From Octopus vulgaris (lineage: Eukaryota), in contig OX597825.1 of the NCBI GenBank assembly GCA_951406725.2, forward strand, positions 79,856,001 through 79,920,000: 64,000 nt of DNA, given 5' to 3'. Positions 2,876 to 60,959 of the stretch are shown here, one piece after another; within the stretch, counting starts at the first letter, position 1; each line of letters opens with the position of its first letter. The notes under the pieces were generated by a model, which was given only the letters and a program-made list of their open reading frames with translations, did no database searches and was not told the origin of the DNA. Position numbers and translations under genes: made by a program.

Positions 2876-2876
2876 A

Positions 2877-7711: not shown

Positions 7712-7747
7712 TAAAACAAATATGAAAATGGAAAAAAAAGAAATAGA

Positions 7748-8590: not shown

Positions 8591-8829
8591 ATGACAATAA
8601 AATGTCCATGTTTAACAATTTGGCTGTTTAAAGAAGTTTTGGAAATTATTTTTTTACTCTTTCAATCAATGATGCTTTCACCAATAAAATTTGAATAATA
8701 TATTATGTCATGAATAATTTTATAACTAATACATTGAACAATTTCTCATTATTCTTAAATTAAGAATAAAAAAAAAAATTAAATTATTTCTCCTGTTTAA
8801 ATTTATTATTTATTTATGCATTTATATAT

Positions 8830-9015
8830 TTATTAGTATTGTTGTAAATACACTCCTTAGAGCTTCTGATTTCACTTGCTCTGGCTGATTCTGTAAGAGT
8901 GGGAAACGACCTATGATCAAGGGTCAAACAGTATCTTCTTACATGAGACCTAACATTAAACTGTCTCAAAATCCTTGCTGTCCCCAATAAAGTAGTTTTC
9001 TGAGCATATTCTGTC
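8830..9015 (-). mobile_element. 3' end of a restriction-like-endonuclease non-LTR retrotransposon (R4/Dong-like)
   Basis: C-terminal AQKTTLLGTARILRQ motif followed by A-rich tail. Confidence 0.5.
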
Positions 9016-10619
9016 CTCATATTAATCCAAGATTTTTCATCTTGTACTGGGGACCAGCACGAGCTCTGCGGAGCATGTTGAACATGTGGCTGATGCTGTT
9101 CTTTGCTGCTGCCTCTAGGCACTTGGCTTTTTCTGTCCAGAATGTCTCCCACTTATCTGTGATGGCCTTGTTGCATATCCATTTGAGGTGGTGGTACTTA
9201 TTCATTTTACTGTGCTGGTGAGCCTTGTAGTGGCAGTTGATTCTCTCCTGCATCTGCTATGAAATTCAGGGTCACTTAGAAAGAGGTCTTGAGTTTACCA
9301 AGACATCAAGTGCAGACTAGTTGATACTTGATTTAAAGAGATCCCAGTTATTGGTCTCATCCTTGACCAGAGTGTTGAAGTGATTGGCAATATAATGTGT
9401 AAGAGTAGAAGTGATGTTGGGATCACAGAAACAGGATGAGTTAAGGCGGACCTGGTACTTTGTGGTGGGGCCCACTTCAACTTGAGTGTCACAGTCGGCA
9501 GTTAATGGTTGGTATTGCTGAGTTGATCTCTGTAGACCTGGCAGTTAGTGAGAAATTACCTCCAGCAGTGGGAGATGATGATGTAGTCAATTGCCTACAA
9601 TTAGAGATTGTTGTCGTGGCTTAGGAGATGCTGGTGATTATTGCTGTCACTGGCGAATGGGTTGGTGTAGGTTGTATCAATAGACTGGTCTGGAGTGGGC
9701 TGGTCGAAATTTGGAGTAATTTATATTTGAGGTATTTTCTCCCTAAGTTCACTCTGCTACAATAATAGCAATAGGCATGTAATTTTTTTATCCTCTAGTT
9801 CTGATGAAAAACTTAATATGATCAGTAGGGTAGAACATCTTAGAAAGGAAAATAGTGTAATCACCAAAAATATGATGAAGTCAGACTAAATAGGCAGGAG
9901 TTATCATGGAAAAGTATTACATATAGCACACCATGTACCATAACATGCAATGCATTTCAATTCACCATATGACATAATATCCCATGATTTTATTATATTT
10001 AATACTAGAGGGTAAGTTTATAATGAATATGACACCAAAATTAACTTCCACCATCATAGTTTAAGTATGGCACTGATCATATTATGACACCAACTCTAGT
10101 GAAGTTCCTATATAGCTTACAGGACAATGAAACCTGGTGGGAGGTGGTGGTCAGCTTTATGCTAGATGAGGGGTTAAAGCATGAGAGAGTGAGAGGGAGA
10201 GTAGAGTAGGGTTCTTGTGGGGGATCTGTATGGTTCCTCACATTTAGCAGGAGACAGGGAAAAAGAGAAAATGAATTGAACAGTTGGACCTTCAAAGAGA
10301 TAATGGTGAATAGAGGTCCAGGTGTTCCCCACAAGGCAAAAGGTGAACAGAAGTTGGTGGGTGGGTGGGTGATTTACGAGATTGCATATGGGAGCAGGAG
10401 ATGAGAGTATGGAGAGGCAGATTGAAACTGTAAAAATTGGGTCAGTTTGAAGAATGGATGATTGATGAGCCATGAATTGAGGAAGAAAGAGGCAGCAGGG
10501 TAATAATGATGATACATTTGGCCAAAGATGGAAAGAGAGAGAGAGAGAGAGAGACATTGTTTCAAAGGTGGGGGTGAATCACTGTAACTTATGGGTGGAG
10601 AGCATATTAAACATAGCAC

Positions 10620-11410
10620 TTTCTAGACTTAGTTTCACTGAGGAGGGTGTGTCTTTTTGAGAACCTCATATTGTCAGACATTCCAGCCTTTTGTCAGCTT
10701 CTCTGTGAGACTTAGGGTCCTGAGGACAGCCTTCACTACTTTATCCCATGTCTTTCTGTATCTCCCTCTTCTGCAAGTTCCACCCATATTTAGCAATCTG
10801 CACTTCTTTGTATAGCTCTCCTTGTCCAGGCGCATCACATATCCATACTAGCACAATCATCTTTCTTGCACACACCATCTGATACGTCTAATGCCCAATT
10901 TTCTCTCAGCACTTTTTTCCTGTGTCTTTCATGCACACTCACATTGAATATCTAGCAGAGCATGCTCACCTCATCTTTTCTAATCCTCTGAATTCAAAGC
11001 CCATGTCTCAATATCATGCAGTATTGCACTTCTAATACAAGCATCATACAATCTACCCTTCACTCTTAGGAAAAAGACCTTTGTTGTCAGCAATGGTGGT
11101 AACTCCCTGAACTTTCTCCGACCTGTTCTTATTTTTGCTACTATACTTTCAAAGCAGCTGCCTTCTTTGCTAATAACATCCTCAAAGGAATAAAAGCTAT
11201 CACCTACTTGTCCTAAGCCATCTGGACACTTAAGAGAAACGATTTCCTGTAAACTCCTACATATTGCTTCAGTGTATCTATTATGTATGAAGCTTATGTT
11301 TATTCTATTTCTGTATATTGAGCAAGGCCATTTCCCAGATGGTACCAGGGTCATGCCTTCTTTCCTACTTACTAAAATTTTCGACTTTGTTAGGTTTACC
11401 ATTAAGCCCT
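10620..11410 (-). mobile_element. RTE-clade LINE fragment; paralog 61521-62300
   Basis: VNLTKSKIL..GKWPC..RVKGRLYDACIRSAILHDIETWAL, homologous to RTE copies at 30741-31661 and 43619-45910. Confidence 0.85.
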
Positions 11411-12078
11411 CTTAATGTTAGGTTAAGCATCCTGAAAGAAACAAATAAAGAGGAAAATGTTAATTTTCAACAATGAAACAATAAGAGATTGTCTTGTGGT
11501 GTGTCAAGGTGAAGTGGGTTAATACAAGTATAATGCATTATGATGTCAATGAAATGAAGCATAAGCCATACAGGATCTTTGATGTCAGTTAATTTCCTAA
11601 TTTAGCATAATTGAAAGCGAGGTAATTTCAATACATAAGTCAAGTAGAAACAAATGAAATGAGAACAAATAAAAGCGAGGGAAGGAAAGAGAAACAAGGA
11701 TAATGAAGTGTTTTGTTTAAGGATATTCATGCTATAAGATACAAATCACAAATCTTGTGGACTATATCTCTGGGAGTCAAATATCAAATATTCCATTGTG
11801 TATACAATTTTTCTATTTAGCAGATTGAAGATGATGCAATACCACACAAATTTACAGGAATATTTTCATAATTTTTCCTATTTTATCTAAAATTTAGCAA
11901 ATTAATTGAACACAATTTTATCTTTTCTATATCTGATAAATATCTAGGAAAATAATATTTGATACTGCTTTTATTCTGCTTAGAATAACAAGAAAAAAAA
12001 GAGTCACGAGAAATCAGCAGAATCAAATAATATAAGCAGTAGGGAAAAGCAACTAACATCGGTAGACAGGTTAACTCA

Positions 12079-12123
12079 TCTCTGATGATGGGATATCATT
12101 ATTTTCCTGAAACAGCTGTAAGA
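12079..12123 (+). ncRNA. Minimal type I hammerhead ribozyme motif (Penelope-associated)
   Basis: tct-CTGATGA-t-ggga..tcct-GAAAC-agct-GTA-aga: intact core, palindromic stem III. Confidence 0.65.
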
Positions 12124-13199
12124 CCACTTTTCTATTTATAAATGGCCTAGGAATATCACATTGTCTTGGCCTTGTTATCTTCCTTTATTTAACATATACA
12201 TGCTTACATATGACCTGCCTTAGACTCCTCATTCATGCTGTTATTGAACTGGGAGCTTAACAGTGGTCTTTCCACAGCTCTTACATAGCTATACTTGCCT
12301 TTTAGGTCTTCTGGATACCAAATCCTCTCACATTATTATTATATATTGTTACGATCAAGCAAATTCTTAGCTATAAAAGGAATGAACTTCTGAATGCAAC
12401 AACAAGGATGAAATTATGTAACAAAAATGTATTTTATATAAGTCAGTTAAAAGATATATTTGATATTTTAGGGATCCATTTGCAAATAAGTTAATCTCCA
12501 AAGAATTTCATGTCCAGTATTTGATTGTTCAAAGTTATATTGTAAACGATCCGATCCGTATGAGCTCTCTCTCATATTTTTTACTATCCATGCAATGCCG
12601 TTGCTGTATATTCAACTCTCCTCTGGATTTTCCTTTTTCTCTTTTTGACAGGAGGTCAATGAGATTAACTCATCTCGTTCATTAACAGGAAGTAAACAAG
12701 ATTACCTGTCTCGTACCTTGCTAACTTTCTGTATGTATATATATACATACATACGTCATTTCAACTCTGCCAAAAAAATGTCATTATATATCTCTCATCA
12801 CAAATGCTTATCTCCCCTCAACCAGATTCTGAAGTTTCATTCAGAAAACATTCTAAGTTCTCTTCCTTCATTATATTGTCTCATTATTTGCACTGATTAT
12901 AGATATAAATAACTATATAAAATCCACAGCTTGATGGTCACCACAGCAGTCTTAGCCTGCTGAGTCACTGTGGTCCAAAATCCAAGCCTAAGCTGGAGGA
13001 TTGGAATGTGCAGCTGAGCTTTGCTATGTCAAGGATTGGTTTAGGTAGCCACTTGAGAGAATGCTTCTCTTCCTTATTGATGTATGTGTGCGTGTTTATG
13101 TATGTGTGTGTGTGTGTGTGTGAGTTTAGGACTGTGTTTGTATTTATAATGGATTTATCTGTGTATTCATGTATGCTTATCTATATATGGGCGTGTATA

Positions 13200-14545
13200 T
13201 AAACTTAGATATGTTTCGACCAAAGATTGGTCCAGGCCATGTCTAACTTAATAGCACCACCTGATAGGATTATTCGAATCCTGTTTAAGTCAAGTTTTGT
13301 TCAAGTAGTGAGTTCTTGTTGGATGAGTTGTATCCAATTATGGGTGGCTTATCTGGTATTCTTTGAAGGAATCTATCCAGACACTGTTTAAAGTTGATGG
13401 GATCCTTTTCCTCTTTGATCTCTCTCGGGACAATGTTAAATAGGGCAGGGCCTGTTGAGGAAAAGAAATTATGTTGCAGTGTATATGTATGTTGTGATCT
13501 TGAATTGGGCAGGGGACGTATAGCCCGTGGTCCAAGTCTTGGATGAACCTTGAAGCTAATGTTTAGGTCGTTTGGGCATAGTTGGCGGTATATTTTCCAC
13601 ATCGTACAAATGATGTACCGCTCACGGCGACGTTGGAGGGAGTAAAGTTTCAAGGCTTTAAGGCGATCCCAATAATCGAGAGCAGCCATGCCTTCAATTC
13701 GTTTAGTGAGTGCCCTCTGGGGTGACTCAATTCTGGAGATGTTTTGTCTTGTGTGAGGAGACCACAGTGGGCAGCAGTATTCAAGGTGTGGCCGTACAAA
13801 GGAGGAAAAAAGTGGTATGATGACACCTTGTTCTCTGGACCGGAAAGTTCTTAAGATCCAGGAACTCATCCTACGAGCTATATCGACCTTCTTGTTGATG
13901 TGTGCACTCCAACTGAGATCGTCATCAACAATTACACCCAGGTCTCTGATATTGTTAGAGGCTGTGAGCGGTTCCCTGAAGGAAGAGAGTATGGCTGTTT
14001 TAGTGAGGAGTTTCTTCCAAAATGCATCAGCTCAAATTTTCCCTCGTTCAGTTGCATTTTGTTTCTGTCTGCCCATTGACTCACAGCATATAGATCAGAA
14101 TGGAGTTGAGTTCAGTCTGCTTCTTCATTGACGATTTGCTGGAGCTTGGTGTCATCAGCAAATATTTTCACTTTGCAGTAATGTACGACACTGGAAAGGT
14201 CGTTTATGTAGATTATGAAGAGTAGCGTGCCCAAGACAGTCCCCTGGGGGACACCGCTGGTGACTTTTGCTGGGCTTGAGTGGACTCCATCAACTACAAC
14301 ATGTTGTGTTCTATTCGCCAGGAAATACTTGATCCAGTGTAGAACTTTTCCACGGATTCCAACATTTGCCAATTTTGAGAGTAGGATATTATGGTCTACC
14401 CTGTCGAACGCTTTACTGAAGTCAAGATATATGACATCAGAGTTCGAACCTGTTCCCAAGGCTTTGAGTACATCTTCAATGTGGTGTAAGAGCTGTGTTA
14501 GACAGTCCCTGCCACAGCGAAAGCCATGCTGATTTGCATTTAGGA
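13200..14545 (-). mobile_element. 5'-truncated CR1/Jockey-group LINE (RT C-terminal half plus 3' UTR stem-loop)
   Basis: YLDFSKAFDRVDH, SGVPQGTVLG, YINDL, FADDTKL, RPHLEYCCPLWSP; frameshifted between ORFs 14112-14459 and 13285-13869; 3' hairpin gaccaa-tct-ttggtc. Confidence 0.93.
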
Positions 14546-16356: not shown

Positions 16357-17140
16357 ATATTAGGGAATAAATCCAAATTTACAGGGAAAAAATCAGATTT
16401 AGGATTAAATCCAATTTTATAGTAAAATATTATATAATATTAATTCGAGACAAAACCACTATTTTGCAAAACAAACAAGGAAAGACTTAATCAATACATA
16501 AAATTTTGGATTTGTCGAACATACTGCACAATTACTTTGACAGGTGATTCTATCAAATGGATATGATCTGCATAATGCCGATTTGATAGTCCTACCTGTC
16601 TTTTCTACAACTTTAACTTTTAGGCCCGTAGTGCGCAGGACTTTCTTGAATGCCTTACTTAGCTCGTTCTTAGGTGTAGCGTCAACGAACATCACTCCGT
16701 GAAATCTCCTGTTATCGTACCAAGTAACGTTTCTCATCTTTTTGTTGGTGTCCCTCTCTAACCTATTCCAGAACTTGTTGCGGTACAGGGGGCATATACC
16801 GTTTTCGTCGTTCCTTAGAATGCGTTCGAATCTAGCTTTCGCTCCTTTGTACACCCTGACTCTATCGTCTTGTGTGTATCCGGAGCGTTGCATTCGGAAT
16901 ATGTAGTGCTGGATGTGTTGTTGTCGTTCTTGTGGTTGGCATAGTGGTGATACATTCCTCATTACTCTAACTAAGTCTGCCACTAGGATGTTGAGTTTGG
17001 CACTATCCGACATAGCTGAGTCGCTACGGATTACTAGTGGATTAGCCATCGGTTTCTGATAGTGTGAGTGGAGTATACAGGGTTTAATGGTACCATTAAC
17101 CATAGCATCTTCCATCCATAGCTCAGTATCTAGTATCCTA
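16345..17140 (-). mobile_element. Penelope-like element fragment (RT thumb to pre-GIY-YIG Cys linker) fused to an AT-rich terminal module
   Basis: LDTELW..HYQKPMAN..SAMS..K..IL..R..RN.S, MQRSGY, PLYR, C-x3-C-x2-C; CpG-rich and stop-free over ~640 bp. Confidence 0.8.
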
Positions 17141-17994
17141 GATACAGAACATTGAGCAACAGTCATGATGTTGGTGTCACCATGTGTAGTTGGTGATCGA
17201 TATAGATGAGTTGGTGAATGAAGATCTATTTCGTTGGTTGCATGAATAATTGAAGCAAAACCCATGAAATTTTAACTGAAATAGTCACCATTGCACACAA
17301 AGATGATCACTATGGAATATTTACAACTAACAACATTAATAATTACAGACTGGGAAAAAAGAATAAAGCATTTGAAGAAGTTCCTTATAAAATATTGTGT
17401 GAATGTTCAGTTTGGTCTGTCCAAGAACCTGGAGTTGTCTGTGCAAATGTCTGGAAACATCAGATGGCAAGAATGGAGGCATATGTCACTCAGCTGCAAA
17501 GAGTTTCATACCATAGCAATTTTTTATAGGTGACAAGATGAATATTCTAGAAGACTAAACCATGTCACAACTTGAAGGTGATTGGTTGCTTAATAGACTG
17601 ATCATGTGAAACTATTGTGATTCAGTCGTGATGACTAACTGGTTATTTAGTGGTTGGGTTTCAAATCACTGCTACATTAGCATTTTGATACCAGGAATGA
17701 ATCATCATGATACAGATAACTTTTGGCCAATATTCAGGTGGCTTCCAGTCTGCCATGTCTGCTGACTTTATCTCAACTACAACTTTAATCTTTATGCTCT
17801 CCAATGCCATTGACTGATTGACTGTTCATCAATACATGAAGCTGTTCTTGGTAAAGATATAAAAGAAATCCTCTTTAGTCCAAATACCACCTCTCTCACT
17901 ATATATATAGTGAGAGAGAGAGAGAGAGAGAGAGAGAGTGAGAAAGAGAGGTGGTATTTGGGTTGAAGAGAATTAATATATATATATATATATT

Positions 17995-29979: not shown

Positions 29980-31645
29980 TTCATCATCATCATCATCATT
30001 GTTTAATGACCACTTTCTATGCTGGCATGTGTTAGACGATTTGACTGAGGATTTGTGAGCTGGATGGCTACACCCGGCTGCAATCTGATCTGACAGAATT
30101 TCAACAGCTGGATGCCGTTCCTAATGCCAGCCACTCCAAGAGTGTAGTGGGTGCTTTTATGTGCCACCAGCATGAGGGTGAGTCAGGTGGTACTGACAAT
30201 GGCCAGGCTCAAATGGTGTTTATTACGTGTCACATGCACAGGAGCCAGTCCAGTGGCACTGGCAACGACCTCGCTTGAATATTGCTTTTCACGTGCCACC
30301 GGCACAAGTACCAGTAAGGCAATGCTGGTAACGATCACGCTCAAATGCTGCTTTTTACGTGCCACCGGCATGGGAGCCAGTCAGCAGCCCTGACAACGAT
30401 CATGCTCGGATGGTGCTCTTAGCGCTCCACTAGCATGGAGGCCAGTCATGTGGTGCTGTCATCAAATTTGATTTTGATTTTACTTGCCTCAACAGGTCTT
30501 CACAAGCACAGTTTAGTGTCCAATGAAGGAAAGGTATGCATAAGTGGGCTGGTTACACTCCTGGCATAAGCCACAGGTTATGGTCTCACTTGGCTTGCTG
30601 GTTCTTCTCAAGCACAGTATATTTCCAAAGGTCTCAGTCACTAGTCATTACCTCTGTGAAACCTAATGTTCAAATGTCATGCTTCACCACCTCATCCCAG
30701 GTCTTCTTGGGTTTGCCTCTTCCACAGGTTCCCTCAAATGCTAGGGTGTGGCATTTTTCACACAGCTATCTTCATCCATTCTCACCATATGACCATACCA
30801 GTGCAGTCGTCTCTCTTGCATGCCACATCTGATGCTTCTTAGGTCCAACTTTTCTCTCAAGGCACTTACACTCTGTTGAGTATGTACATTGACATTACAC
30901 ATCAATCGGACCGCACTGGCTTCATTTCTTACAAGCTTATGCATATCCTCAGCAGTCACAGCCCATGTTTCACTGCCGTGAAGCATCTCTGTTTGTAAAC
31001 ATGCGTCATACAGTCCACCTTTTACTCTGAGCGAGAGGCCCTTTGTCACCAGCAGAGGTAGGATCTCTCTGAACTTTGCTCAGGCTATTCTTATTCTAGC
31101 AGCTACACTTTCAGAGCACCCACCCCCACTACTGACTTGGTCACCTAGGTAATGGAAGCTATCAACTACTTCTAGTTTTTCTCCCTGGAATGTGGCAGAA
31201 GTTGTTCTCTGCACATTTTCAGGGTTTATTGCTCCTGAGCATCTGCCACATACAAAAACTATCTTCCCAGTTAGCCTTCCTTTGATGTTGCTGCACTTCT
31301 TATGTATCCATAGCTTACACTGGGTACATCTTATAGAGTTTCTACCTATGCCTTTACTACAGATCAAGCAGGGCCATCTACCTGAAGGGATTTGTGGTTT
31401 GTCTGCCTTCCTACTTATTAGGACTTTGGTTTTAGCTAGGTTGACTCTAAAGCCCTTCGATTCTAATCCTTGCTTCCACACCTGAAACTGGTCCTCTAGT
31501 TCTGATAGAAACTCAGCAATTAGAGCAAGGTCATTAGCACAGAGGAGCTCCCAGGTGCATCCTGTCTTGAGTTTCTCTGTTATTGCCTGGAAGACTATGA
31601 TAAATAGGAGGGGGCTGAGGACTGAACCTTGGTGGACCCATCCTT
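29980..31645 (-). mobile_element. RTE LINE (RT C-terminal part plus internally repetitive 3' UTR)
   Basis: VHQGSVLSPLLF, LLCANDL (YADD decayed), GRWPC..C..C..WIHKKC, LHGSETW. Confidence 0.93.
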
Positions 31646-31835
31646 TGAGCATTTTCCACATGAAAAGAAGTGTCCTAATCTGTATTGGAAGAGCAGAGAA
31701 AGTAAATGGCTTTCAATCATATTCTAATAATTTCATTTTAAATCCGCTCTTCTTATAAAACAATTATTGTGTTATGATTATTAATTTTGAAATGTTGTTT
31801 TCACTGATGGGCAAATTTGTTCTGTTACTTTCTAG

Positions 31836-33061: not shown

Positions 33062-33867
33062 GTAAGTTGATAGAAGGCATTTCTTATGTCACTTCATTAG
33101 AAACTATGAAGTAGTTCTACCTTGCTGCCTGTGTGGCTTTTACAAGTTGTTAATGATAAAAAAAAGAGAGTGAGCAAGGTGAATTCTAAATGATTCATGC
33201 TGCTGTGTTGATTTACCATCAACAGTTAATCTTCCAAACTCCAAAACCAGATTCCAACTGAAAGATGTAAAACTAAACAATATTTCATAGCTCTACATTG
33301 AGATTCTGTCATATATCCAGTTATAGTTGTCGGTGGTGATGGTAGTGGCAACGGCATTTTGATGTTCACTTTGCCATGCCTGCTTGAATCAGAAGAGAAT
33401 TCATTAATTAGATGTTTTTTGGATGGATGCTCTTCCTGTCACCAACCCTTACATGTTTCCAAATATTGTAATATTTCATTATGGTCAGTATATAATTTGT
33501 GGAAGGTTTGATACAAAGGACACAGCTTGCATGATGGTGATGCTCATTTTACAACTACTGTATGATGTTAAGGGGACAAAACTACCATCGTGTGTGTGTG
33601 TGCATGTGTATGCGAGTGATTTCAGTTTCTGTCTTTTAAATCCAGGGGCAATAGTGGAAGACACTTGCCTGTGATGCTATGCAGATAGCCTTCCTCAAAT
33701 CTGAAATATTTTAGATAATAATACTATAACTGAGAGTATTGACCTGAACTATTTCTGTTTCATCTCTGAACTCCATTATAACACATACAAACATTTTTCC
33801 AGCCAATTATTTTTGAAATCTATTTTTGAGAGGCAATGTCAGACAAAAAGAAAAGCTCTTTTGCTCC

Positions 33868-34683
33868 TGTGGTGTATGCGAGAGATTCGAAATAAAGGCA
33901 CCTACCTTCTCTTCGCTCAGATGGAGACCCTTCAGCGGTAATGGATCCTTCAACACAGCCCGATCCAAACGCTAGAAATAGCAGCTGCTTTTCCCAACCT
34001 TAACAACGGCGACCTCGATTGAAAGGCAGAATCCTGCCCTAACTACGCGCGCATCACTTCTGCCGCGTATTCGTCCACCTGTCCTCCCATCCATCTAATC
34101 GTACCCAGCTTAGCAAAAGCTGTGTACTCACACTCTCTGTAGGCATCCCTCAGACGTTGCTCTATCTTTTCCTCACTCAGACGTTCTTTCTCGTCCATCT
34201 CAAGATATAGCGTCAACGCGCTCCCTTCCAAATACAGCACCATAAGACTTGCCACATTGCTTATACCTTGCAGTCTTGCCACCAGCCTGATTTTACGCAT
34301 CCAGGTCACTACATCACCTTCACCATTAAAGGGTCTGATAATGTTGCTGGCGATCCTGATTTTCGCCGCCATTGTGGTGACGTCTTATATGGAGAGCCGA
34401 AATAGCTTGTGGTGTATGCGAGAGATTCGAAATAAAGGCACCTTCCTTCTCTTCGCTCAGATGGAGACCCTTCAGCGATAGTGGATCTTTCAACACAGCT
34501 CGACCCGAACGCTAGAAATAGCAGCTGCTTTTCCCAACCTTAACAACGTGCTGGCCTGTCTTACTCACTCAGCGACCTCGATCGAAAGGCAGAATCCTGC
34601 CCTACCTGCACACTCGTCACTGCTGCCCCTTCCGGTCAGCCCCAAGTTCCGGTCAGCTCCCCAGCTGCTGACGTCATCCCACA
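33868..34683 (-). mobile_element. Internally deleted Ty3/Gypsy-type LTR retrotransposon (5' LTR 34408-34683, gag 34372-34043, partial 3' LTR 33868-34041)
   Basis: TGT..ACA LTR ends, 5-bp TSD gctcc (33863-33867, 34684-34688), gag N-terminus IRPFNGEGDVVTWMRKIRLVARLQ..LYLEGSAL. Confidence 0.9.
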
Positions 34684-34914
34684 GCTCCTAAGGGCAACAT
34701 GGAACATTCTAAAATGTTTTGCTGGTGATCCTGATCTTGGAATTTTGCTCTTTATAGAAACCTTGTGTCTTTAGATACTCAATGAAAATTATCTTTTTAA
34801 TGCCCATTTTCATCCCTCAGCTTTGTCTCTCCAAGTGATTATTCTTATTGTAACAGGCAATTATGATTTGACTTATGAGGTATTCCTGCTGTTATCTTTT
34901 GACAGTTTCACTAT

Positions 34915-37627: not shown

Positions 37628-39452
37628 ATGATGACAGTTCTATTCCTTCATTGATGTATTTTTAACAAAGCTGTATAAAATTATTTTACTTTTTATAGTT
37701 TATGTAGAATTTGTTTCTCTTTCGAATGATATAGGTATTATATATCTTTCTACAATTTAAATAATGTTAATATGCAATTAAATGAAATTGTTAGAAATTG
37801 TTGGCAAAATAAGTTTAAGACCAAACCAAAACTATGCAAATTAATAAGCTAAATAAATGTGTGGTCATATGGCTGGTCGTACTGCACTGCTTTGTTTAAT
37901 AATTGAACATTGTTACACATTAATTCACTATGGGAAAGCGTTGTAGTATCAGCCCAATCACTAGATCAAAGATCATGCTGCTTCATCAGCAAAATGTGTC
38001 CTTTGTGAACACTAGCAAGCAATTAGGACACAGTAAAATGGCTTGTGTTCAAGCATGGAGGCTTTATCAAGCCACAAGCCAATACAAAGATTGGCAAAAA
38101 ATGGGTACGCCAAGAAAAACAACAGTATAGATGGATTGCTGAATTCATAGGCTCTCTCAAGGTAACCAAATGCTAACAACAGTGGACGTTTGCAAGCAAT
38201 TATCTGATGAAACTGACATGAACTTTACACCACAAACTGTCAGAAACAGTCTAAAAATTTGGACTGTTTGGCTGAATCTCTTGAAAAAGCTGATAATTTC
38301 TGCGACTAACTGGCAGAAGCAGATGAAGTTTGCTAAAAGCCATATTGAATGGACAACCGAAGACTAGCCAAAAGATTTTGGAGCAATGAATCCCACTTCT
38401 GCATCTTTGGATCAGATGGATAGACTTATTTTAGATGCCGTTCAACTGAATAATTCCATCCTAAATGTGTCAAGAAAACCATGCGAGCAGCAGGTGGTGG
38501 GGTAATGGTGTATGCTACAATCAATAACTTAGGTTGATGGCAGACTGAACAGTATAGGTTAGCTGCAATTAGTAAATGAAAATGTGCTGCCATATTTAAA
38601 TAATCAGATGCCAAGGAGATCTATTTTCCAGCAGGACAATTGCCCTGTTCATAAGGCTAGGGAAGTTTTGCAATATTTTGAGTGCATTAATATGGTGGTT
38701 ATTGAGTGGCCTCCACAGAGCCCAGATTTGAATCTGATAGAAAACTTATGAAATTAGGTTTCTAAAGGAATTCATGCTAAAAAAAACAACAAATTTGTCC
38801 CTATTATATAATTTTTTGAAGGAATATGGCAGAACATTCCAAGTGAATTTTGTGCTCAACTGTTGAACTCCATGTCCCACCGTTGTAAGGCTGTAATTGA
38901 AAATAATGGCTATAGAATGTGGTGTATGCGAGAGATTCAAAATAAAGGCACCTACCTTCTCTTTGCTCAAACGAAGACCTTTCAGCGATAATAGATCCTT
39001 CAACGCAGCCCGACCCAAACACTAGAAATAGCAGCTGCTTCTCCCCTATGTTAACAAAGTGCTCACGTATCTTACTCGCTCGGTGACGTCAATTGAAAAA
39101 GGCCGAATCCTGCCCTGCCTGCGCGCGCGTCTATCCTGCCCCTTCCGGTCAGCTCCCCAGCTGCTGACGTCATCCCACATAGAACTCGATACTAATAATA
39201 AATTTTTGTTCATTGATCATTTCTGCTGTAAATTTTCAATTTAAACAAAATAATGTTGGTATGGTCTTAAATTTATTTTGTGCATTAAAATTATTCAAAT
39301 TGTAGAAAGATATATAACACTTATATCATTCAAAAGAGAAAAAAATTCTACATAGACTGTAAAAAGTAAAATAATTTTATAGTTTTGTTAAAAGTGAATT
39401 AATGAAGGAATAGAACTGTCATCATCGCTCTGAAACTTATTTTGGCCAGTGT
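37628..39452 (+). mobile_element. Decayed Tc1 element carrying a solo LTR
   Basis: Long inverted repeats 37628-37758 / 39297-39425, right end ..ggccagtg-TA; remnants GTPRKTT, FQQDNCPVH, WPPQSPDLNLIEN. Confidence 0.85.
38918..39179 (-). mobile_element. Solo LTR of the same family as 33868-34683
   Basis: TGT..ACA, 5-bp TSD tagaa (38913-38917, 39180-39184). Confidence 0.92.
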
Positions 39453-42959: not shown

Positions 42960-45910
42960 ATCATCATCATCATCATCGTTTAATGTCCGCTTTCCATGCT
43001 AGCATGGGTTGGACGAATGACTGAGGGCTGGCGAACCAGATGGCTGCACCAGGCTTCAATCTTGATCTGGCAGAGTTTCTACAGCTTGATGCCCTTCCTA
43101 ACACCAACCACTCCGAGAGTGTAGTGGGTGCTTTTACGTGTCACCGGCACGGGGCCAGTCAGGTGGTACTGGCAACGACCTCACTCAAATCTTTTACACA
43201 TGCCACCAGCACAGGTGCCAGTAAGGCAATGCTGGTAACGATCACGCTCGAATGGTGTCTTTTATGTGCCACCTGCACGGAGGCCAGATAGCCGCTCTGG
43301 CAAGGATCACGCTCGTATGGTGCTCTTTAAGGCGACACTGGTAATGATCATGCTCGAATGGTGCCTTTTAAGTGCCACTGGCATGGAAGCCAGTTAGCCA
43401 CTCTGTCAATGATCACATTCGTAAAGTGCTCTTTGCACCCCGCTAGCACGGACGCCAGTCATCAAATTTGATTTTGATTTTTGATTTTAAATTTTTGATT
43501 TCACTTGCCTCAACAGGTCTTTGCAAGCAGAGTTTTACTGTCCAAAGAAGGAAAAGGTACACATAAGTGGGCTGGTTACGCCCCTGGCATAGGCCATGAG
43601 ATTATGGTCTCATTTGGCTTACCGGGTCTTCTCAAGCATAGCATATTTCCAAAAGTCTCGGTCTCTAGTCATTTCCTCAGTGAGGCCTAAAGTTCGAAGG
43701 TCGTGCTTCACCACCTCGTCCCAGGTCTTCCTGGGTCTACCTCTTCCATAGGTTCCCTCGACCGCAAGGGTGTGGGACTTTTTCACACTGCTGTCCTCAT
43801 CCATTCTCACCACATGACCATACCAGCGCAGTCATCTCTTTTGCACACCACATCTGATACTTCTTAGGCCCAACATTTCTCTCAAGGTACTTACACTCTG
43901 TCGAGTATGCACACTGTCATTACACATCCATCAGATCATACTGGCTTCATTCCTTGCAAGCTTACGCATGTCCTCAGCAGTCACAGCCCATGTTTCACTG
44001 CCATGTAGCATGGCTGTTCGTACATATGCGTCATACAGTCTACCTTTTACTCTGAGCGAGAGGCCCTTTGTCACTAGCAGAGGTAAGAGCTTGCTGAACT
44101 TTGCCCAAGGTAACGGTAACGGAAGCTATCAACTACTTCTAGTTTTTCTCCCTGGAATGTGGTGGAAGTTGTTCTCTGCACATTTTCAGCACCTGAGCAT
44201 TTGCCACATACGAAACTATCTTCCCAGTTAGCCTCCCTTTGATATTGCTGCACCTCTTATGTGTCCATAGCTTACACTGAGTACATCTTATAGAGTTTCT
44301 ACCTACGCCTTTTCTACAGATCGAGTAGGGCCATCAACCTGAAGGGATTTGTGGTTTGCCTACCTTCCTATTTATTAGGACTTTGGTTTTAGCTAGGTTG
44401 ACTCTAAGACCCTTCAATTCTAATCCTTGTTTCCACACCTGAAACTTCTCCTCTAGTTCTGATAGTGACTCAGCAATTAGAGCAAGGTCATCAGCATAGA
44501 GGAGCTCCCAGGGGCATCCTGTCTTGAATTCTTCTGTTATTGCCTGGAGGACTATGATAAATAGGAGGGGGCTGAGAACTGATCCTTGGTGGACCCCAAC
44601 CTCTACCCTGAATTCAATGTACTCGTTGCCAACCCTTACCTTACTTACAGCATCCCTGTACATGGCTTGCACTACTCTCACTAACCATTCATCTATCCCT
44701 AGTTTCCTCATTGACCACCAGATAAGGGATCAGGGGACCCTGTCAAAGGCTTTCTCCATGTCAATGAAAGCCAGGTACAGGGGCTTATCTTTGGCTAGGT
44801 ACTTCTTCTGCAGCTGTCTTACCAGAAATATGGCATCAGTCGTGCTTTTCCCTGGCACGAAACCAAACTGCATCTCATCCAAGCAGACTCTCTCCCTAAT
44901 CAGTTGGGCTATACGACCCTCTCCGTAACCTTCATTACCTGATCCAACAGCTTGATACCTCTGTAATTATTTGTATCTAAAGCGTCACCTTTACCTTTGT
45001 AGCAGTTGACTATTATGCTGCTACACCAGTCATTGGGAATGACTCCTTCATGTATCACCTGGTTAACTATATGGGTGACTAGTCAATAGCCAACACTGCC
45101 AGATATTTTGAGCATCTCTGCAGTAATTCCTGATGGGCCTGGGGCTTTCCATGTCTTCATACTTCTAATTGCCTTATCTACCAAGGTACTGTCAATTTGG
45201 ATAGCTGGTCCCTCTGTTGGGTCAACATTTGGCAGACTCTCTTTCTCACATTCATTTTCTTTATTCAGGAACCTTTCATAGTGGCATCTCCAGACCTCTC
45301 TCTTAGCATCCTCAATTAGTGCAAGTGAATCATCATCCATGCGAACACATTTCTCTCCTACCACATCATGATTCTCTCTCATACACTGTCTTACAACACG
45401 AAATACCTCAAGTCTTTCGTCCTTGCGGCACAGAACATTGGCCAATTTTTTCTTATCTGCTTCCTCTCTGGCTAAATAAACCTGCCTCCTAGCTTCCCTC
45501 CTGGCAGTCTGATAAACTTCCCAGCTACCACCGTTCTTCCAAGCCTGTTTCTTTTGTCTAATAGCCCTGTCAACAACAATGTTCCACTACCACGTTATTT
45601 TGGGTCAAGATGGGACTTTGCACCATCCACAGATCTGGTCGGTGGCCCTTAGCAGGTTGTCCCGTAGGAACCTCCAGTTGTCTTCTATACCATGTGAAGC
45701 TATATTCCCTTCTATTTCATCAAAGGCTTTGAGTAATATGTCTCTAAATCTCTGTCCATTTGCGGGATCTTTAAGTCTCCAGACTCTTCTCCTTGCTGGT
45801 CGCCTTCTGGGCAACCATTTAGCCCTTACCCAGAAGTCACTAACTACCAGCCTATGTTGTGGGGTACATTCTTCGCCTGGGAAGGTTTTGGCATTTATAA
45901 GCAGCCATCT
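42960..45910 (-). mobile_element. ~3-kb RTE LINE (end of endonuclease region, RT, 3' UTR), frameshifted
   Basis: QHRLVVSDF, KAPGPSGITAEMLK, GVHQGSVLSPLLF, LLYADDLAL, GRGRPRKTW. Confidence 0.95.
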
Positions 45911-47724: not shown

Positions 47725-49351
47725 TTTTGCGGCCAAAATGTTCAGAACGGCATTGTTTTTGCCAGAAAAGTAGGTATTAGTTTTTAACAAAATTGTTTTA
47801 TGTTCTACAATTTTCACAGACAATAAATACAATATTAATTGTTATTGTCTGATGTAATTTTGATGTAATTTGAGAGGATAATACAAAAGGTATGGATGAT
47901 TTAGTGATTTACTGCAAAACCTATGGCGGGCAAAATTATCAGAACGGTTGAAAACATAACAAAATAATCAAAAATGACAGAGAATACTGGAATTATTTAA
48001 TATTTAGTGTGAAGCCCTTTAGCTTCAATCACACTTTGACATCTTCGACTGCATGAGGAAATAAAATTTTCAATTTCTTGCTAGGTGATCTTATTCCATT
48101 CTTCCTGAAGGGCATTCCATAATTGCTCGGTTGTTTTAGGATTTCTGGCTTTCAAACTTTCTCCTAGAATATTCCACACATTTTCAATAGGATTGAGATC
48201 TGGGCTTTGAGCAGGCCAATCCATAATAATAACCTTTTCAGCCTTGAGGAAGTTCATGACCACCTTAGCCTTGTGACATGGGGCATTGTCCTGCATGAAT
48301 ATGGGTGGTCGCTTAGTTGAATTTCTCAGCACAGGCAAGACATGATCTTTTACAAGTTGTCTATAAACTCCTGCATTTACCTTTCCATGTAATCGCACCA
48401 AAGAGCCCACACCATCTCCAGATATCATTCCCCAAATCAGGACACTTCCTCCACCGAATTTAACACAGTCTTAAGGCATTTAGGCGACAATTTTTCACCT
48501 ACTTTTCAATGAACGTACCTTTTCCCATCTGAGCCAAATAACATAAACTTAGATTCATCACTGAAATGCACCGTTTGCCATTTTTCTTGAGACCACAACA
48601 CATGTTCGGTTGCAAAGGTAAGACGACACTTTTTATTTTTGGAGCTGATCAGTGGCTTCACTGCAGGTTCTCTTGCTTGTAGGTTATGTTCAACTAAATG
48701 ATGAAACACAGTTTTTCGACATAACGTTTTCTTCAGTACAATGCTCATTTCCCAAGAAACAGCAGCAGCAGTTTTAAATCTGTCCTTTTTAACCAACTTT
48801 ACCATAGCACAATCTTCTCTCTTGGTCGTTTTTCTTGGCCTACCTGTAGACTTTCTTGCTTTACATGAACCACAATCATCGAAGACCTTAAGAATACCAT
48901 GAAAAACACTTTTTGACTTGTTAACAATCTTTGCAATAGACCCAATACTTAAATTATCCTTCTTTCGAAGCTTAATAATCTGCTGACGAATTGGTAACGG
49001 AGTAAGTGGCATTATATTAACAAAGTACACTGCAGATATTCTTACTAATGTTTAATAAACGAACCATCACGTAAACAAATTCAAAACATTAGAGTTCGCC
49101 AGTTAAATATACTAAAACACGGAGTAAAAGCAACCGTTCTGATCATTTTGGCCGCCATGGGTTTTGCAGTAAATCACTAAATCATCCATAACTTTTGTAT
49201 TATCCGCTCAAATTACACCAAAATCTCAGACAATAACAATTAATATTGTATTTATTGTGTGTGAAAATTACAGAATATAAAACAACTTTGATAAAAACTT
49301 ATACGTACTTTTCTGTTGAAAACAATGCCGTTCTGAACATTTTGGCCGCAA

Positions 49352-49354: not shown

Positions 49355-49403
<49 letters not shown>

Positions 49404-50019
49404 CAGGCTTCTTTCAGTTTCCATCTATCAAATCCATTTGCAAATAAGGTTTTGGTTGGCCCGACACGATAGTAAGAGACACTTGCCCAAGGTGGAATGT
49501 AGTGGGACTGAACGTGGAACCTGGAACAATGTGAAAATTTGTTTATTTACTTGTAGTATAGTGTCATAGTATAGGAATTTAAGTGTTAAAAATTTTACAC
49601 TCATTATTGAAAGAAAAATCATTTGTATTAATAATAATCTTCAAAAGGAATAAAGACTACTTCAACAAACTGTTTAAAAATTCTAATGGTACAATGTAAC
49701 AGAAAGAATCTGAGATCTAGTTAGAACAGATATCACTATACTTTACTGCAGTGGTCTAATAAGACAAAACATACCGAGGGTTAAGCTCCATACTTACCAA
49801 TAACCTGACTCTCTTCCTAAAGCATGTCTCCATTCAATTCTTTATCAATTTTTATTTTGACAGCAATTATCACAAAAAGTTATAGATTTCCTTTTAATTA
49901 TATTAGTAATTTTTAATGAAGATAATTTTGCTTTTGATTATTAAGTTACATATATTAGGTTCCGTTTAAGTTTACATAAACTGTTGGTTAATTGAGTATC
50001 TTATTGTTTTCTTCTTTAG

Positions 50020-50083
50020 TTATTGGCCTCTCTGCAGTCCTCACGTCATTTTTGATCATCATCATCATCATACTCTGTATCAG
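50020..50083 (+). CDS. Gene B exon 11 (transmembrane)
   Basis: cttctttag acceptor, cag|gtaaag donor; with exon 10 gives SIIIVIGLSAVLTSFLIIIIIILCI followed by basic RYNILKNKRSK. Confidence 0.9.
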
Positions 50084-50234
50084 GTAAAGCTTGTATATTA
50101 TTAATCTATTTCCTTTTTGTGTTTATATGTGTGTGGGCTTATGTTTATGTGCATATATGTGTTTGAATTTGTGTGTGTGTTTGTTTAAAGAACAGGAAAT
50201 GGGACATTACCAAAGTATGTGCATGTGTGTAGGA

Positions 50235-50277
<43 letters not shown>

Positions 50278-52811
50278 CAAAGGTAATAAACACAACAAAC
50301 GGAAATCATCAAAGTTAAATTTGCAGGAAAAGGATGATAGTACAACAACAGCAAACAGTACAAAACAAGATACACAGATCATTCGCAGCCAATTGCTTCT
50401 TCAATTGGAGTCTAGAATGTCCATATAGTTTGGTCTGATTCTCTTTAATACTACTTGAAACCTGTTGGGTCAAGGGCTTAAGCTGAAGTCATTAAGCCCC
50501 TGAGCAAGGCAAATGAATGTACATATACAAACACAAGGAAATGACAAACAGACAGGGTCTTTCAACTATCAAACGAATGTAACAAGAAATAGAATTATAC
50601 ATATACAATGGACCAAAGGAAAATAATTATTCAATTACAACAAAAATAAAACAAAGCAGAGTCTTTCTCCTATTAGACAGTGTAAGTAAGCTAGCTCAAG
50701 GGAAAAGGAAAGGGAAAATCTTAACCAGCCAGGTGGTGAGACAGAACAGATGTGACTGACCTCAAAGGCAGTCAACAGAAAAAGGATGACAATGCATAAA
50801 CCAGACAGCAATATATGAATATATATTATATTATATTATATTATATTACATTATTATTATATTATATTATATTATATTATATTATATTATATTATATCAT
50901 ATTATATCATGTTATATTATATATATAGATATAGATATTGGATTGGCCAAAAAACTTGTGCCTAGTTTTAATCAAAAATTAGGCACAAGTTTTAAACAAA
51001 ATGATTTATTCAATCAATGATATAATCATATTTTTGTTCCAGTATCTTCCAATATCCATTATACCTTGTTCGATGAATTTCTTGACTTTACTAGCATAAA
51101 AACTTTTCATGATGAATTTTTACATTCTCCTCAGAGTTGAAGGTCTGTTCATTTAATGAATTTTGAAGAAACTTAAACAGGTGGAAATCTGAAGGCACCA
51201 GTTCAATATTTGAATATTGAGGGTGTGGCAAACTAACCCAGCCAATCCCTAGTAAATTCTGTCATGTCTACAAAGAAGTGTGCAGTCTGGCATTGTCCTA
51301 ATGAAAGACATTACCCTAATGATTAGCAAGTGCTGGATGCTTCTGGTGGATCACTGCATTTAATTTGTCCAGCTGGTTATGGTACACATCAGAATTGATA
51401 GCCCTATCTGTCCAAAGTAACGTATAAAAGATGACATCTTTCCAGTTCCACCTAACTGAAAACATAATCTTCTTTAGGCAAAGTCCTGCTTTGGAGGTTG
51501 TTTGTGGTGGTTTGCAGCACTTCCCTCGTGATATTTTGTGCTTTACATCATTATAGATTATCTAACTTCAGTCTGTGAACTTGTGAGAAAACAGGATGTA
51601 TTTTGCATGCTCAGGACTACTCTGAAAATGGAAACTGAAAACAAAAATTATTAACACCTCACGCTATTTTATTTTTAAAAATCAAGACAAGAAAAGTAGC
51701 AGAAACCTGCAGGAAGATATGCACCGTGTACAGAAAGGATGCTGTTGCAGAGCATGTCTCAGAAATAGTTTTCAAGATTTCAATCAGGCATGGCCTAGTG
51801 GTTGGTGTGTTGCACTCATGATTGTCAGATCATGGGTTCAATTCCCAGATTGGGTGGTGTGTGGTGTTTTTGAGCAAAGCACTTCACTTCACATTACTCT
51901 AGTGCTGAGTAGGAACCAGATAATCAAAAAATAGGATCTAACGTTTCCTTTGTGCATCATAAAATGTATGTTGTTTTGCCTTGCTATAAAGGATGGACTA
52001 CAGCAAATATTCTGCTCAATACCACAGATTTGCTCGTCAGTTGCTTGATCTTAACTAGTTGAGCATTATTTGCCTTTGTGGCTGACAATATGTGCATCTC
52101 TAATCACGAGCAGAAGTAATGGGGGAGCATCATAGCCATGTGTTGAGGGGAATTCTTTGGTGCTTGAATAATTCACGTCAGAACTATGGGTGTTTTGTTC
52201 ATCCTTAAACAAACCTTATTTGGGGATCTTTTGAGCAGGATAGGCTACTCAACCTGAAGAAAATTCTAACTGGACCTTACCTGCAAGGTCATGTATTGTT
52301 TATGTTGATATGAGATCAACATGCTGTACACATATGGTTGTGATGCATAGACCTAGTGTACCCTTATCAGATGGGTATTCATGATGGGCATATTGGGCTT
52401 CGTATATTTGTACCCCAGGGTCACTTTGATGACATGCATTGCTCTCTCACTCAATGATAATGATAATAATAATTAAAGTGACGTACAAAGGATATATTTA
52501 TCATGAAAAGGTGGAAGAAGAGGTATGATAGGTTGCAATGATTGTGTAGAAAGTGAAACAAAAAGTTTTGGTTGGTATATTCAGAACAGTACAGAACTAT
52601 TATTTCATGGGAGTTAAATTGGCTGTAAGATTTTTAAAGAGATGATTAAAGATTCTGGGACAGTTGAATAATTTGGGTCAAATCTAATTGGTTATTCGAC
52701 GTACACATTTCTGATATATGTCAGTAATGACTTTCTCACTGGTACACTTGTCTGTATATTGCATAAATGTAATTCTTTTTCCCTATATAAATTGAACTTC
52801 ATACTCAAGTC

Positions 52812-57016: not shown

Positions 57017-57179
57017 AATAAAAAAATTTCTAAGATCTTGCATGCCTTCATTAATGCAAAATGTAAAAAATCCTACAAAATAGTGCTTTTTTATGAGTAC
57101 TACAAGATTACTAGAATCCATGTATTGTGACTTAAATATACATATATATATATATATGTATAAATGTAAATTTAATAAA
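57017..57179 (+). promoter_or_regulatory. Candidate polyadenylation signals of gene B (AATAAA at 57017 and 57174)
   Basis: Hexamers 150 and 307 nt after the stop; weak evidence in AT-rich DNA; the first reads AATAAG in copy A. Confidence 0.3.
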
Positions 57180-59069
57180 AGAAAATGGGGAAAAAAAATA
57201 TTGTGGATACTTGGTTAAATTTATTTGAAATCACATTGAGAAAGTATTACATATAAGATTCAGGATATGAAGGGATCGGATCAATGAAAGAAATAAGCAA
57301 AGAATTAACTTTACATATGTTTCAGTCTGGTTTTAAGTTTGAATTATCAGCATTCAAACTATTTTAGATGTAAAAAAAAGCCCATATTTAGTCAGATATC
57401 TTCAAAAGTAGATGTGTACTTTCAGGTGTTGAACAATGAAATAAATCAAGGTGACGACTGTGTTTTCAAATATTCAAACATAAACAATAATTTATAAGGA
57501 TGTCAAGTTCATGTGAGGAGATATTATACATTCCTTTCTACTCTAGGCACAAGGCCTGACATTTTGGGGGAGGAGGCCAGTCAATTAGATCGACCCTGGT
57601 ATGCAACTGGTACTAAATTTATCAACCCCGAAAGGATGAAAGGTAAAGCCGACCTCAGAGATATTATACATTGAAATTTTGCTAAAATACTATAACGTAT
57701 TTGAAAAATATACATATAAGGGATTAAGGGACATAAATAAGTCATTTAATTATAATAATGAGAGATAAAATAGACTTTTGAGGGGAAAAAACAGAAATGA
57801 TTTTGGGAAATAAAAGAGGAAAATAACTCTATATGTACTATCAGTATTATCTATAATTTCTATGTACTAACATATTATTTTTAATACTACCTCACCAAAT
57901 ATGTTACATGCAGTCTAGATAACACACATATTAAAATAAATTAAACAAATTGTCAAGATTATAGCAAAAAAGATAATTCTTCTTTAGCAAAAGGTATCTA
58001 TCCCTTGTGTTATGACTGAGTCAGTTAAACTGAAAATCTTAAACTTTCCTTTGCTGATGTAGAAGTGTGACTGTGATCTGGCCGATTCTTTATAATCAAC
58101 CTCTGAACATTCTGTTTAGATACTGCTTGATCTATTCTGCCAATGATTATTTTTTGATTTGTCTGTTGATCATATAGAAAATCGTGTTCTCTCTGTGGTA
58201 CTTTTTTGCCTCTGCAGGGACTGTCAAATAAAATTTTTAAACACATTACATTCTGTTTGAAACAATGGTACATTTTTTTCTACTTTTCACAGATTTTAGT
58301 AATGCTTGGTACTTTAGATAAAAGTTTAAGATTTTTGGTTTAACTGACTCAATCATAGCTCAAGGGATTGATGTCTTTTGCCAAAGAAGAATTATCTTTT
58401 CTGCAACAATCTTGACAATTTGTTTAATTGAAGGATCTCTCTCAACTACATTCTTTTCTTTTTCTCATTCAAATCAAAAATACATTAGTATGTACTTGTA
58501 AGTTGACAAAACTTGCTCGCTAAGATCACATGGAGTACCAAATATTGGGCATTCAATACCAAGATGTATTATTGGCTTATGAGGTCATCACTACATGTAA
58601 ACAACACTAAATTTAACACGATCATTAATTTTAATGCAATGGCCTAAAGTCAAAGTACAAAGCAGAAAACTTCACACACGTACGACATACATCTACACAC
58701 AATGACTGTTGCAGTGACACTGGAGAGAAGCTCACACTCCCATTCTCTTTTAGTCAATGTGGAACCTCAAGATATTAGCCAGTTGTATTGAAATTTGGCA
58801 TGCAACCTCTTAAGGATACTATACTTACTGTTTTGCATTCTGCTATGTAGAAATATGTATTTGTTACAACTTATAATCCATGAAATTTAAAATTCAACCA
58901 AAAATAGTGATTTTAAAAATTTTCAATTGCTTTGCGGAGCCTGAAAAAATATTTAACTGCAAAGTTTCTTTAAACCCTAATTTGCAACAAAATATTGATT
59001 TTTGGTTTCAATAATTGTTGCATTGGGTGTGGCAGCACACCCAATACGACAACTACTATATGCCACTGA

Positions 59070-59103
<34 letters not shown>

Positions 59104-60959
59104 TAAAACAAATATGAAAATGGAAAAAAAGAAATAGACTAAAAACATTCGGACAGATAGACAATACAAAGGCAGACAAGAGAAACAACAGTTAGAAAGA
59201 CAGGCAAAAAAAGACAGGTCATTCATGGCCTTCTTTCTTCAGTCAAGTACCAGGCATCATGACCATTTCAGGCAGTTACACTTGAGGTGGTTCGATCTGG
59301 TTGCCTCCAAAAAGTCTAAGCTAAGAGCATTAGACCCCGTTGTAAGAAAGCTAGCGAATGTGTACGACAACAAAGACAAAAAACGGAGAACATGGTACAC
59401 AATTACGAATACAAACAAAAGAAATAACAACAGGTGTCTTTCGACTGAGAACGAATCAAACTGAGCTGGTGTGTATGGAGAGCCTAAAGGCAGGAACATA
59501 GAAGATGGACATAAGAGGTGTTGGCAGTTGATGGTCAGGCCAAGAAAGAAAGATCATGGCTGGCCAGGACACTGGTCTTATGGAAGGAGGAGAGATGGGT
59601 AGGGGGCAGCAGGATTGAAGGATTAGAAAAATAATCAGACAAAGAAAAAGGTACAGGGGAAATAAACAAGTGGGAAATAGTGGTCGTTAAAGAAAGAGAG
59701 GGCCAAGAAATGTGAGAGAGGAGAGAGAAAAAAGGAAGACAGAGAGAAGGGACTACAAGATAGAGTAAGAGTCATACAAAATTTAGATACACACCTACTA
59801 TAAGGTGAGCACAAGTGTGTATGTACGCTGCTATATGTATATATAAATATAAAAATTGAACAAAAATGCAATAGAGGACACTAAAAACATTCAGACAGAT
59901 CGACGATACAAAAGTGGACAAGAGAAACAACAATTACAAGGACAGGCAAAAAAGCAGGTTATTCGTAGCCTTCTTTCTTCATGACAATAAAATGTCCATG
60001 TTTAACAATTTGGCTGTTTAAAGAAGTTTTGGAAATTATGTTTTTACTCTTTCAATCAATGATGCTTTCACCAATAAAATTTGAATAATATATTATGTCA
60101 TGAATAATTTTACAACTAATACATTGAACAATTTCTCATTATTCTTAAATTAAGAATTAAAAAAAAAATTAAATTATTTCTCCTGTTTAAATTTATTATT
60201 TATTTATTTATGCATTTATATATTTATTAGTATTGTTGTAAATACACTCCTTAGAGCTTCTGATTTCACTTGCTCTGGCTGATTCTGTAAGAGTGGGAAA
60301 CGACCTATGATCAAGGGTCAAACAGTATCTTCTTACATGAGACCTAACATTAAACTGTCTCAAAATCCTTGCTGTCCCCAATAAAGTAGTTTTCTGAGCA
60401 TATTCTGTCCTCATATTAATCCAAGATTTTTCATCTTGTACTGGGGACCAGCACGAGCTCTGCGGAGCATGTTGAACATGTGGCTGATGCTGTTCTTTTC
60501 TGTCCAGAATGTCTCCCACTTATCTGTGATGGCCTTGTTGCATATCCATTTGAGGTGGTGGTACTTATTCATTTTACTGTGCTGGTGAGCCTTGTAGTGG
60601 CAGTTGATTCTCTCCTGCACCTGCTATGAAATTCAGGGTCACTTAGAAAGAGGTCTTGAGTTTACCAAGACATCAAGTGCTGACTAGTTGATACTTGATT
60701 TAAAGAGATCCCAGTTATTGGTCTCATCCTTGGCCAGGGTGTTGAAGTGATTGGCAATATAATGTGTAAGAGTAGAAGTGATGTTGGGATCACAAAAACA
60801 GGATGAGTTAAGGCGGACCTGGTACTTTGTGGTGGGGCCCACTTCAACTTGAGTGTCACAGTCGGCAGTTAATGGTTGGTATTGCTGAGTTGATCTCTGT
60901 AGACCTGGCAGTTAGTGAGAAATTACCTCCAGCAGTGGGAGATGATGATGTAGTCAATT

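Follow-up and report, generated by a model that had tools for sequence, protein, structure and literature searches.

Three routes of priming are textbook knowledge for LTR elements: from the 3' end of a tRNA, from half of a tRNA that has been cut in its anticodon stem, and by self-priming. In the copia/Ty5/Tca type the site pairs with tRNA-iMet or tRNA-Arg in the region of the anticodon stem and the tRNA is cut near nt 39/40, and the self-primer of Tf1 is 11 nt long. tRNA contacts away from the 3' end are known in Ty1 and Ty3. Canonical 3'-CCA priming, as in retroviruses, most Ty3/gypsy elements, and lennie/Saci2, relies on a tRNA-complementary site of 8-18 nt behind the 5' LTR; in lennie, this site matches the 3' end of tRNA-Leu and lies 4 bases from the LTR, and insertions are flanked by 4-bp target-site duplications (TSDs) (excerpt of PMC4558846). 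In copia, Ty5, and Candida Tca, a 5' tRNA piece primes and the site matches a region other than the tRNA 3' end (excerpts of PMC4139406 and PMC7773854). Tf1-type priming pairs a 5' RNA segment to the site and then cleaves it (excerpt of PMC4600332), and a role for RNase H in that cleavage is indicated by the title of a reference in the same source.

Against these systems we set an LTR retrotransposon on the minus strand of the window, that is, the whole 64-kb stretch of repeat-rich animal DNA that was analyzed (Table 1). The element spans 816 bp, is flanked on both sides by GCTCC, and shows the direct LTRs with TG...CA ends, the TSD, and the gag of an LTR retrotransposon. An internal deletion took the remaining gag, pol, the PPT, and the beginning of the 3' LTR, and because most of gag, pol, and the PPT are gone, this copy is dead. 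The 3' LTR remnant differs from the 5' LTR by 8 mismatches in 170 aligned bases and by one 23-nt indel. The TSD is 5 bp long in both insertions seen, the element (GCTCC) and a solo LTR of the same family (TAGAA). A Pfam search with the gag piece of the window returned 0 families, an Rfam search of positions 33800-34750 gave nothing near a cut-off, and no tRNA genes were found within the window.

Table 1. Features of the element and of the related solo LTR (positions are those of the window).
Feature	Position	Strand	Remarks
5' LTR, TGT...ACA, 276 bp	34408..34683	-	outer end: mixed-sequence loose ends at 34683/34684 in 4/4 runs
Predicted primer-binding site, adjoining the LTR	34396..34407	-	exact complement of tRNA-Phe(GAA) nt 1-12
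Leader (23 nt) from site to gag ATG	34373..34395	-	unconserved
gag 5' part, 109 codons (P0001)	34046..34372	-	ends at the internal deletion
3' LTR remnant, last ~197 bp	33868..34064	-	inner boundary approximate
Target-site duplication GCTCC, left copy	33863..33867	.	
Target-site duplication GCTCC, right copy	34684..34688	.	
Solo LTR, same family, 5-bp TSD TAGAA	38918..39179	-	fixes both LTR ends

The surroundings of the element are rich in other repeats. The solo LTR (79% identical) sits inside a probable Tc1/mariner element with inverted repeats at 37674-37771 and 39284-39381. Long direct repeats that are 98-99% identical and lie about 48-51 kb apart (1321-4347 and 49373-52407; 5644-9599 and 57051-60967; 10137-13108 and 61024-64000) point to a tandem segmental duplication of recent origin or to an assembly duplicate. 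Fragments at 13285-14031, 16459-17271, 31080-31712, 45083-45586, and 48506-49051 resemble non-LTR reverse transcriptases, a Penelope-like element, and a Tc1 transposase, labels that were judged by eye from translations.

The predicted primer-binding site reads GCCGAAATAGCT (34396-34407), and the LTR (TGTGGTGT) begins at 34408. A prior sequence-only reading had placed this 12-mer directly against the 5' LTR without an intervening TGG, and the sequence bears this out, with the boundary set by the TSDs and the solo LTR: since the solo LTR terminates at the same base, the 12-mer comprises the first bases outside the LTR. In the window element, the 30 nt next to the LTR end contain no TGG. The reading's further claim that animal tRNA-Phe(GAA) begins with the matching 12 bases agrees with the human tRNA, whose start is identical (excerpt of PMC11706605). 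The 12-mer is perfectly complementary to human tRNA-Phe(GAA) nt 1-12, with U12 toward the LTR, the priming orientation that the reading had described. By chance, 0.004 exact matches to the 12-mer would be expected in the whole window; the chance that nt 1-12 of any of 100 tRNAs match at this fixed place is about 6e-6, or about 1e-3 when a match is allowed in any register.

The same reading had extended the likeness into the D-arm through GGAGAGC at 34391-34397. That heptamer is present, but its resemblance to the D-arm is incidental and unconserved, and we rejected the extension. Contigs from four runs representing four organisms, with hundreds of pieces each, cover the whole stretch, and position 34395, which directly follows the 12-mer, is T in 5294/7084, 652/820, and 425/686 depth units in three runs and in 68/133 in the fourth; the T breaks the D-arm likeness. 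Moreover, the 12 bases that follow the site are unconserved among relatives. None of the 40 variant rows listed, out of a longer list with 128 further rows, falls inside 34396-34407. The loose ends of mixed sequence at the outer LTR end in these contigs mark many insertions of the family. A reading of the site as a Pol III A-box was likewise rejected, as no more than TAGCT is shared and the next LTR bases vary between relatives. The LTR also contains an 8-nt same-sense copy of the site core (34515-34522, the complement of tRNA-Phe nt 4-11), retained at the corresponding place in all three LTRs, which may be a second tRNA contact or due to chance.

Relatives of the family are numerous. The gag piece has 551 relatives among representatives at 50% identity, with Aplysia, Argonauta, Petrolisthes, and Oratosquilla as hosts where these are named, and many of the protein matches lie on contigs of 4.0-4.3 kb. 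The size of the Cigr-1 element, about 4.2 kb, would fit this clade. The presence of Cigr-1 in molluscs has been described (excerpt of PMC6238403). For six further loci, selected only by gag or pol protein similarity, DNA was obtained: metagenomes supplied three (3 confirmed among 169 pattern matches), bacterial assemblies two (2 of 40), and the same assemblies then one more. The junction comparison comprised six loci (the window element, L002, L003, L004, L035, and L036), with L034, which begins inside gag and has no junction, left out and L037 being the same contig as L035. In L002 and L004, the site is preceded by the end of pol, a run rich in purines, and a TG...CA segment; the LTR ends of L003, L035, and L036 were placed from a common CTACA-like end without a TSD, and L036 reads AAA there rather than CA.

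After the LTR end, L002 reads AGCTATCGCGGC, L003 reads AGCTATCACGGC, L004 reads AGCTATCCCGGC, L036 reads AGCTATCCGGGC, and L035 reads AGCTAGCCGGTA. Site positions 1-5 (AGCTA) and position 10 (G) are identical in all six junctions and positions 11-12 in five, among loci whose gag identities are 25-56%. Pairwise identity among the six averages 9.3/12 within the site, 7.0/12 at the LTR end, and 3.1/12 over the 12 bases that follow the site, and conservation breaks off where the tRNA 5' end breaks off. Conservation of the 12-mer at the junction had been put forward as a check on the earlier reading, and the register is indeed kept in 6/6. One finding it had named as contrary evidence, a conventional TGG primer-binding site in relatives, appears in none of the six: no TGG stands at the LTR end or a few bases from it, and the nearest ones, at offsets of 12, 17, and 25, each lie inside the start of gag.

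Several observations accompany this set of loci. The contigs of L002 and L004 run in the order pol end, one LTR, site, gag, compatible with one-LTR circles, tandem copies, or collapsed repeats. L034, L035, and L036 are eukaryotic LTR elements found in two bacterial metagenome-assembled genomes, and those bins therefore carry host DNA. A candidate from a protein scan of viral contigs (L001) was dropped as a false match to a cold-shock-like phage gene, and two further loci (L038 and L039) were set aside, their gag matches being weak (E 6e-7 and 5e-4), without pol similarity to the clade in the locus or a located LTR junction. Further protein scans of viral contigs found no relatives, a gag scan of genome contigs found none, the junction pattern gave 17 chance matches in viral contigs, all without gag, and the plasmids and phages searched gave no matches.

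Translated traces of the junction are carried by gag proteins as well. With junction peptides derived mechanically from the DNA pattern, a junction translation was found upstream of gag in 27 of the 60 proteins that have an upstream extension (shuffles: mean 1.3, maximum 5); in the other 33 the mechanical motif is absent, some of these extensions holding one-residue variants and some being too short to reach. This count replaced a first one of 34/60, which was set aside because its pattern had been picked after the data were viewed. Among independent later proteins with extensions of at least 15 residues, 3 of 5 carry the junction peptide; 8 of the 15 later proteins are cluster mates of earlier ones and hence not independent. 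Judged from the sequences compared, the complement of tRNA nt 1-12 in priming position is a real, conserved, and clade-wide feature.

The identity of the tRNA is less uniform than its register. A 12-nt 5' fragment of tRNA-Phe had been proposed as the primer, and while the register of the site is supported in all six junctions, Phe is not universal, as two relatives match tRNA-Lys. L036 is fully complementary to tRNA-Lys(UUU) nt 1-12 (12/12), and L035 to tRNA-Lys(CUU) nt 3-12 (10/10), with nt 1-2 unpaired, the mammalian tRNA-Lys 5' starts in Table 2 of PMC10878346 (seen as an excerpt) serving as reference. L002 and L003 match human tRNA-Phe at 10/12 positions and L004 matches Lys(UUU) at 11/12, the junctions of L002-L004 each differing from human tRNA-Phe at 2/12 positions; all of these references are human or mammalian starts that may differ from the host tRNAs of each locus. 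The complements of L002-L004 are identical to nt 1-12 of genuine tRNA genes carried by viral contigs (42/120 loci), found with a search pattern that required the match and in tRNAs that are not those of the hosts. tRNAs in the two contaminated bacterial assemblies looked bacterial or phage-like, and none was usable as a host tRNA. AGCTA itself cannot name the isoacceptor because tRNA nt 8-12 are common to many tRNAs.

As the aligned junctions read, the isoacceptor changes among relatives while the primer end stays at U12. That the middle of the site tracks tRNA acceptor stems and the U12 end is constant is the strongest argument for selection to pair with the tRNA 5' end. Alternatively, the site could be a conserved cis element, such as an extended integrase or packaging signal, whose tRNA match is coincidental; the fair conservation of the 12 bases inside the LTR end would suit such an element. 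We regard this as very improbable: two distinct tRNA 5' ends are each matched at 12/12 positions, when chance would yield even one such match at about 6e-6, and the varying middle follows real acceptor-stem differences.

Comparison with the described routes sets the locus apart from each. Canonical 3'-CCA priming shares with it a tRNA-complementary site behind the 5' LTR, but here there is no TGG and the opposite end of the tRNA is matched; Saci2 and lennie differ in both site and TSD (excerpts of PMC4558846 and PMC12471100). The copia, Ty5, and Tca elements of the Ty1/copia group resemble it in the matching of a tRNA region other than the 3' end and in a primer that would likewise be a 5' tRNA piece, but the site here pairs with nt 1-12 of Phe or Lys rather than with the anticodon stem, and the order is PR-RT-RH-IN, with IN last and not before RT. 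There is also a likeness to Tf1/sushi elements (Tf1, Tj1), in which the site adjoins the LTR without a TGG and an RNA has to be cut at the edge of the duplex for its first 11-12 nt to serve as primer. The difference is that the pairing RNA here would be a host tRNA and not the element's own transcript.

Self-priming by the 5' end of the transcript, another contrary finding that the sequence-only reading had named, was examined in each locus. The best upstream complement of the 12-mer reaches 7-9/12 and pairs no better than shuffles in 6/6 (p 0.19-0.72), so that a self-complement is found in 0/6; for L003, L035, and L036 these values refer to the upstream DNA available. One possible pairing, confined to the window element, joins site positions 8-18 to LTR nt 20-31 (uncorrected p 0.013); together with the Tf1-like placement, it speaks for self-priming. 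Yet it leaves out the 7 bases adjoining the LTR and takes in the variable base 34395. It also comes from a set of 24 tests and has no counterpart in the other five loci, and we consider self-priming of the Tf1/sushi type extremely unlikely.

We propose that minus-strand DNA synthesis in this clade probably starts at the 3'-OH of U12 of a host tRNA, with the U12-ended primer made on the template. Nucleotides 1-12 of the tRNA (Phe in the window, Lys in two relatives) would anneal to the site once the 5' acceptor strand and the 5' D-stem strand have been prised open, for which the zinc knuckles of Gag may act as chaperone. The annealed tRNA would then be cut between nt 12 and 13, leaving a 3'-OH on U12. 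In energetic terms, the 12-mer duplex is computed at -18.7 to -23.5 kcal/mol, which outweighs the 11.5 kcal/mol for opening the same bases in a model of unmodified tRNA-Phe. As DNA synthesis requires a 3'-OH at nt 12, we infer with reasonable confidence a cut that separates nt 12 from nt 13 of the tRNA. The candidate for the cutter is the element's own RNase H, which would carry out the Tf1 step in trans, on a tRNA; provided that cleavage occurs, this assignment is plausible, falling just short of probable.

The same primer could instead be made by the host, as a tRF-5a of 14-16 nt or through an RNase P-like cut, and trimmed to U12 or to G10; in the latter case AG would be left over, a 2-nt spacer for integrase to remove. 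tRF-5a of this length exist, including Lys-TTT 1:14 (excerpt of PMC10878346), and gypsy elements commonly have a short gap separating the LTR from the site (excerpt of PMC4139406). The shortest 5' tRNA fragments in the table of PMC10878346, as excerpted, end at nt 14-16; because nt 13-14 (C13-A14) are unpairable with the LTR end, cutting or trimming at the duplex edge would still be required. In addition, AG matches C11-U12 in 6/6, which a free spacer need not do. A host-made primer thus seems unlikely to us.

A cut in the tRNA is not something that can be read from sequence, and the site might bind the 5' strand of an uncut tRNA for packaging, dimerization, or structural anchoring, like the bipartite contacts of Ty3 and Ty1 that lie away from the tRNA 3' end. 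DNA synthesis would in that case begin at a different hydroxyl, such as a 2'-OH branch at U12 or that of a primer attached at some other position. We find this decidedly unlikely: the match stops exactly at the LTR, in priming orientation, in 6/6, there is no TGG site at the LTR end, and no second primer site was seen.

Cleavage of the annealed tRNA at U12 by the element, which remains our preferred reading, draws attention to its RNase H. Acquired RNase H domains are known inside the Ty3/gypsy superfamily, and an archaeal-type RNase H behind a tether is known from plant Tat and oomycete Archon/Chronos elements. The full-length relatives P0004, P0024, P0271, and P0293 have a CCHC gag and the order PR-RT-DUF7047-RH-IN, and so display the PR-RT-RH-IN order and CCHC gag of Ty3/gypsy (Metaviridae); the window copy has no pol. 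In pol proteins of the clade, RVT_1 scores are low (22-33 bits), the RNase H matches Pfam RVT_3 in 20/20 and RNase_H in 12/20, with RT_RNaseH not listed, an atypical profile for Ty3/gypsy, and the D-E-D-D residues are retained in 76-77 of 77.

A structure model of the RNase H (pLDDT 91.7) gave its highest-scoring alignment to Halobacterium RNase H1 (Z 17.7, rmsd 2.0, 122 residues aligned), followed by LC11-RNase H1 (15.1) and Sulfolobus RNase HI (14.9), with lower Z scores for CaMV (13.1), HIV-1 (12.4-12.7), and Ty3 RT (9.4). The best NCBIfam matches are archaeal RNase HI, weak and far below the cut-off, and a sequence search with the RNase H against the PDB gave nothing significant. The RNase H of the clade is thus predicted to be closest to archaeal RNase HI, and the full-length relatives are predicted to carry an intact enzyme of this type behind a tether domain. 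The combination of tether (DUF7047) and predicted archaeal-type RNase H (L004 60-734) is unusual for animal LTR elements. It resembles that of Tat and Archon/Chronos, but these are compared here by features alone, and the present elements differ in their animal hosts, their size of about 4 kb, and their non-canonical primer site. Since Sulfolobus RNase HI cuts dsRNA and LC11-RNase H1 does not, an archaeal fold permits but does not prove RNA:RNA cleavage.

A description of priming by tRNA nt 1-12 was not found in the open literature as excerpted, a scope outside which subscription papers, Repbase, and GyDB lie, and the excerpted parts of PMC7472051, PMC4402516, PMC3670739, PMC12140624, PMC3286476, and PMC2774666 do not mention it. 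An earlier description may nevertheless exist, although we think this somewhat unlikely. A survey of 1512 elements matched primer-binding sites to the last 12 nt of tRNAs only (excerpt of PMC13524379). More tentatively, the elements may form a compact and widespread animal LTR clade with a priming mode of its own, in which tRNA nt 1-12 are cut after U12 by an archaeal-type RNase H and whose sites would have been overlooked because primer-binding-site finders test tRNA 3' ends only.

In sum, should the proposed cut be confirmed, priming from nt 1-12 would extend tRNA-fragment priming by a further form. If true, it would add a fourth register, at nt 1-12, to the known routes, along with an RT-associated cleavage of tRNA at the D-stem, and missing calls of primer-binding sites would be explained. 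Very short 5' tRNA fragments might then arise from the elements, and 5' rather than 3' tRNA fragments would be predicted to be able to silence the clade.
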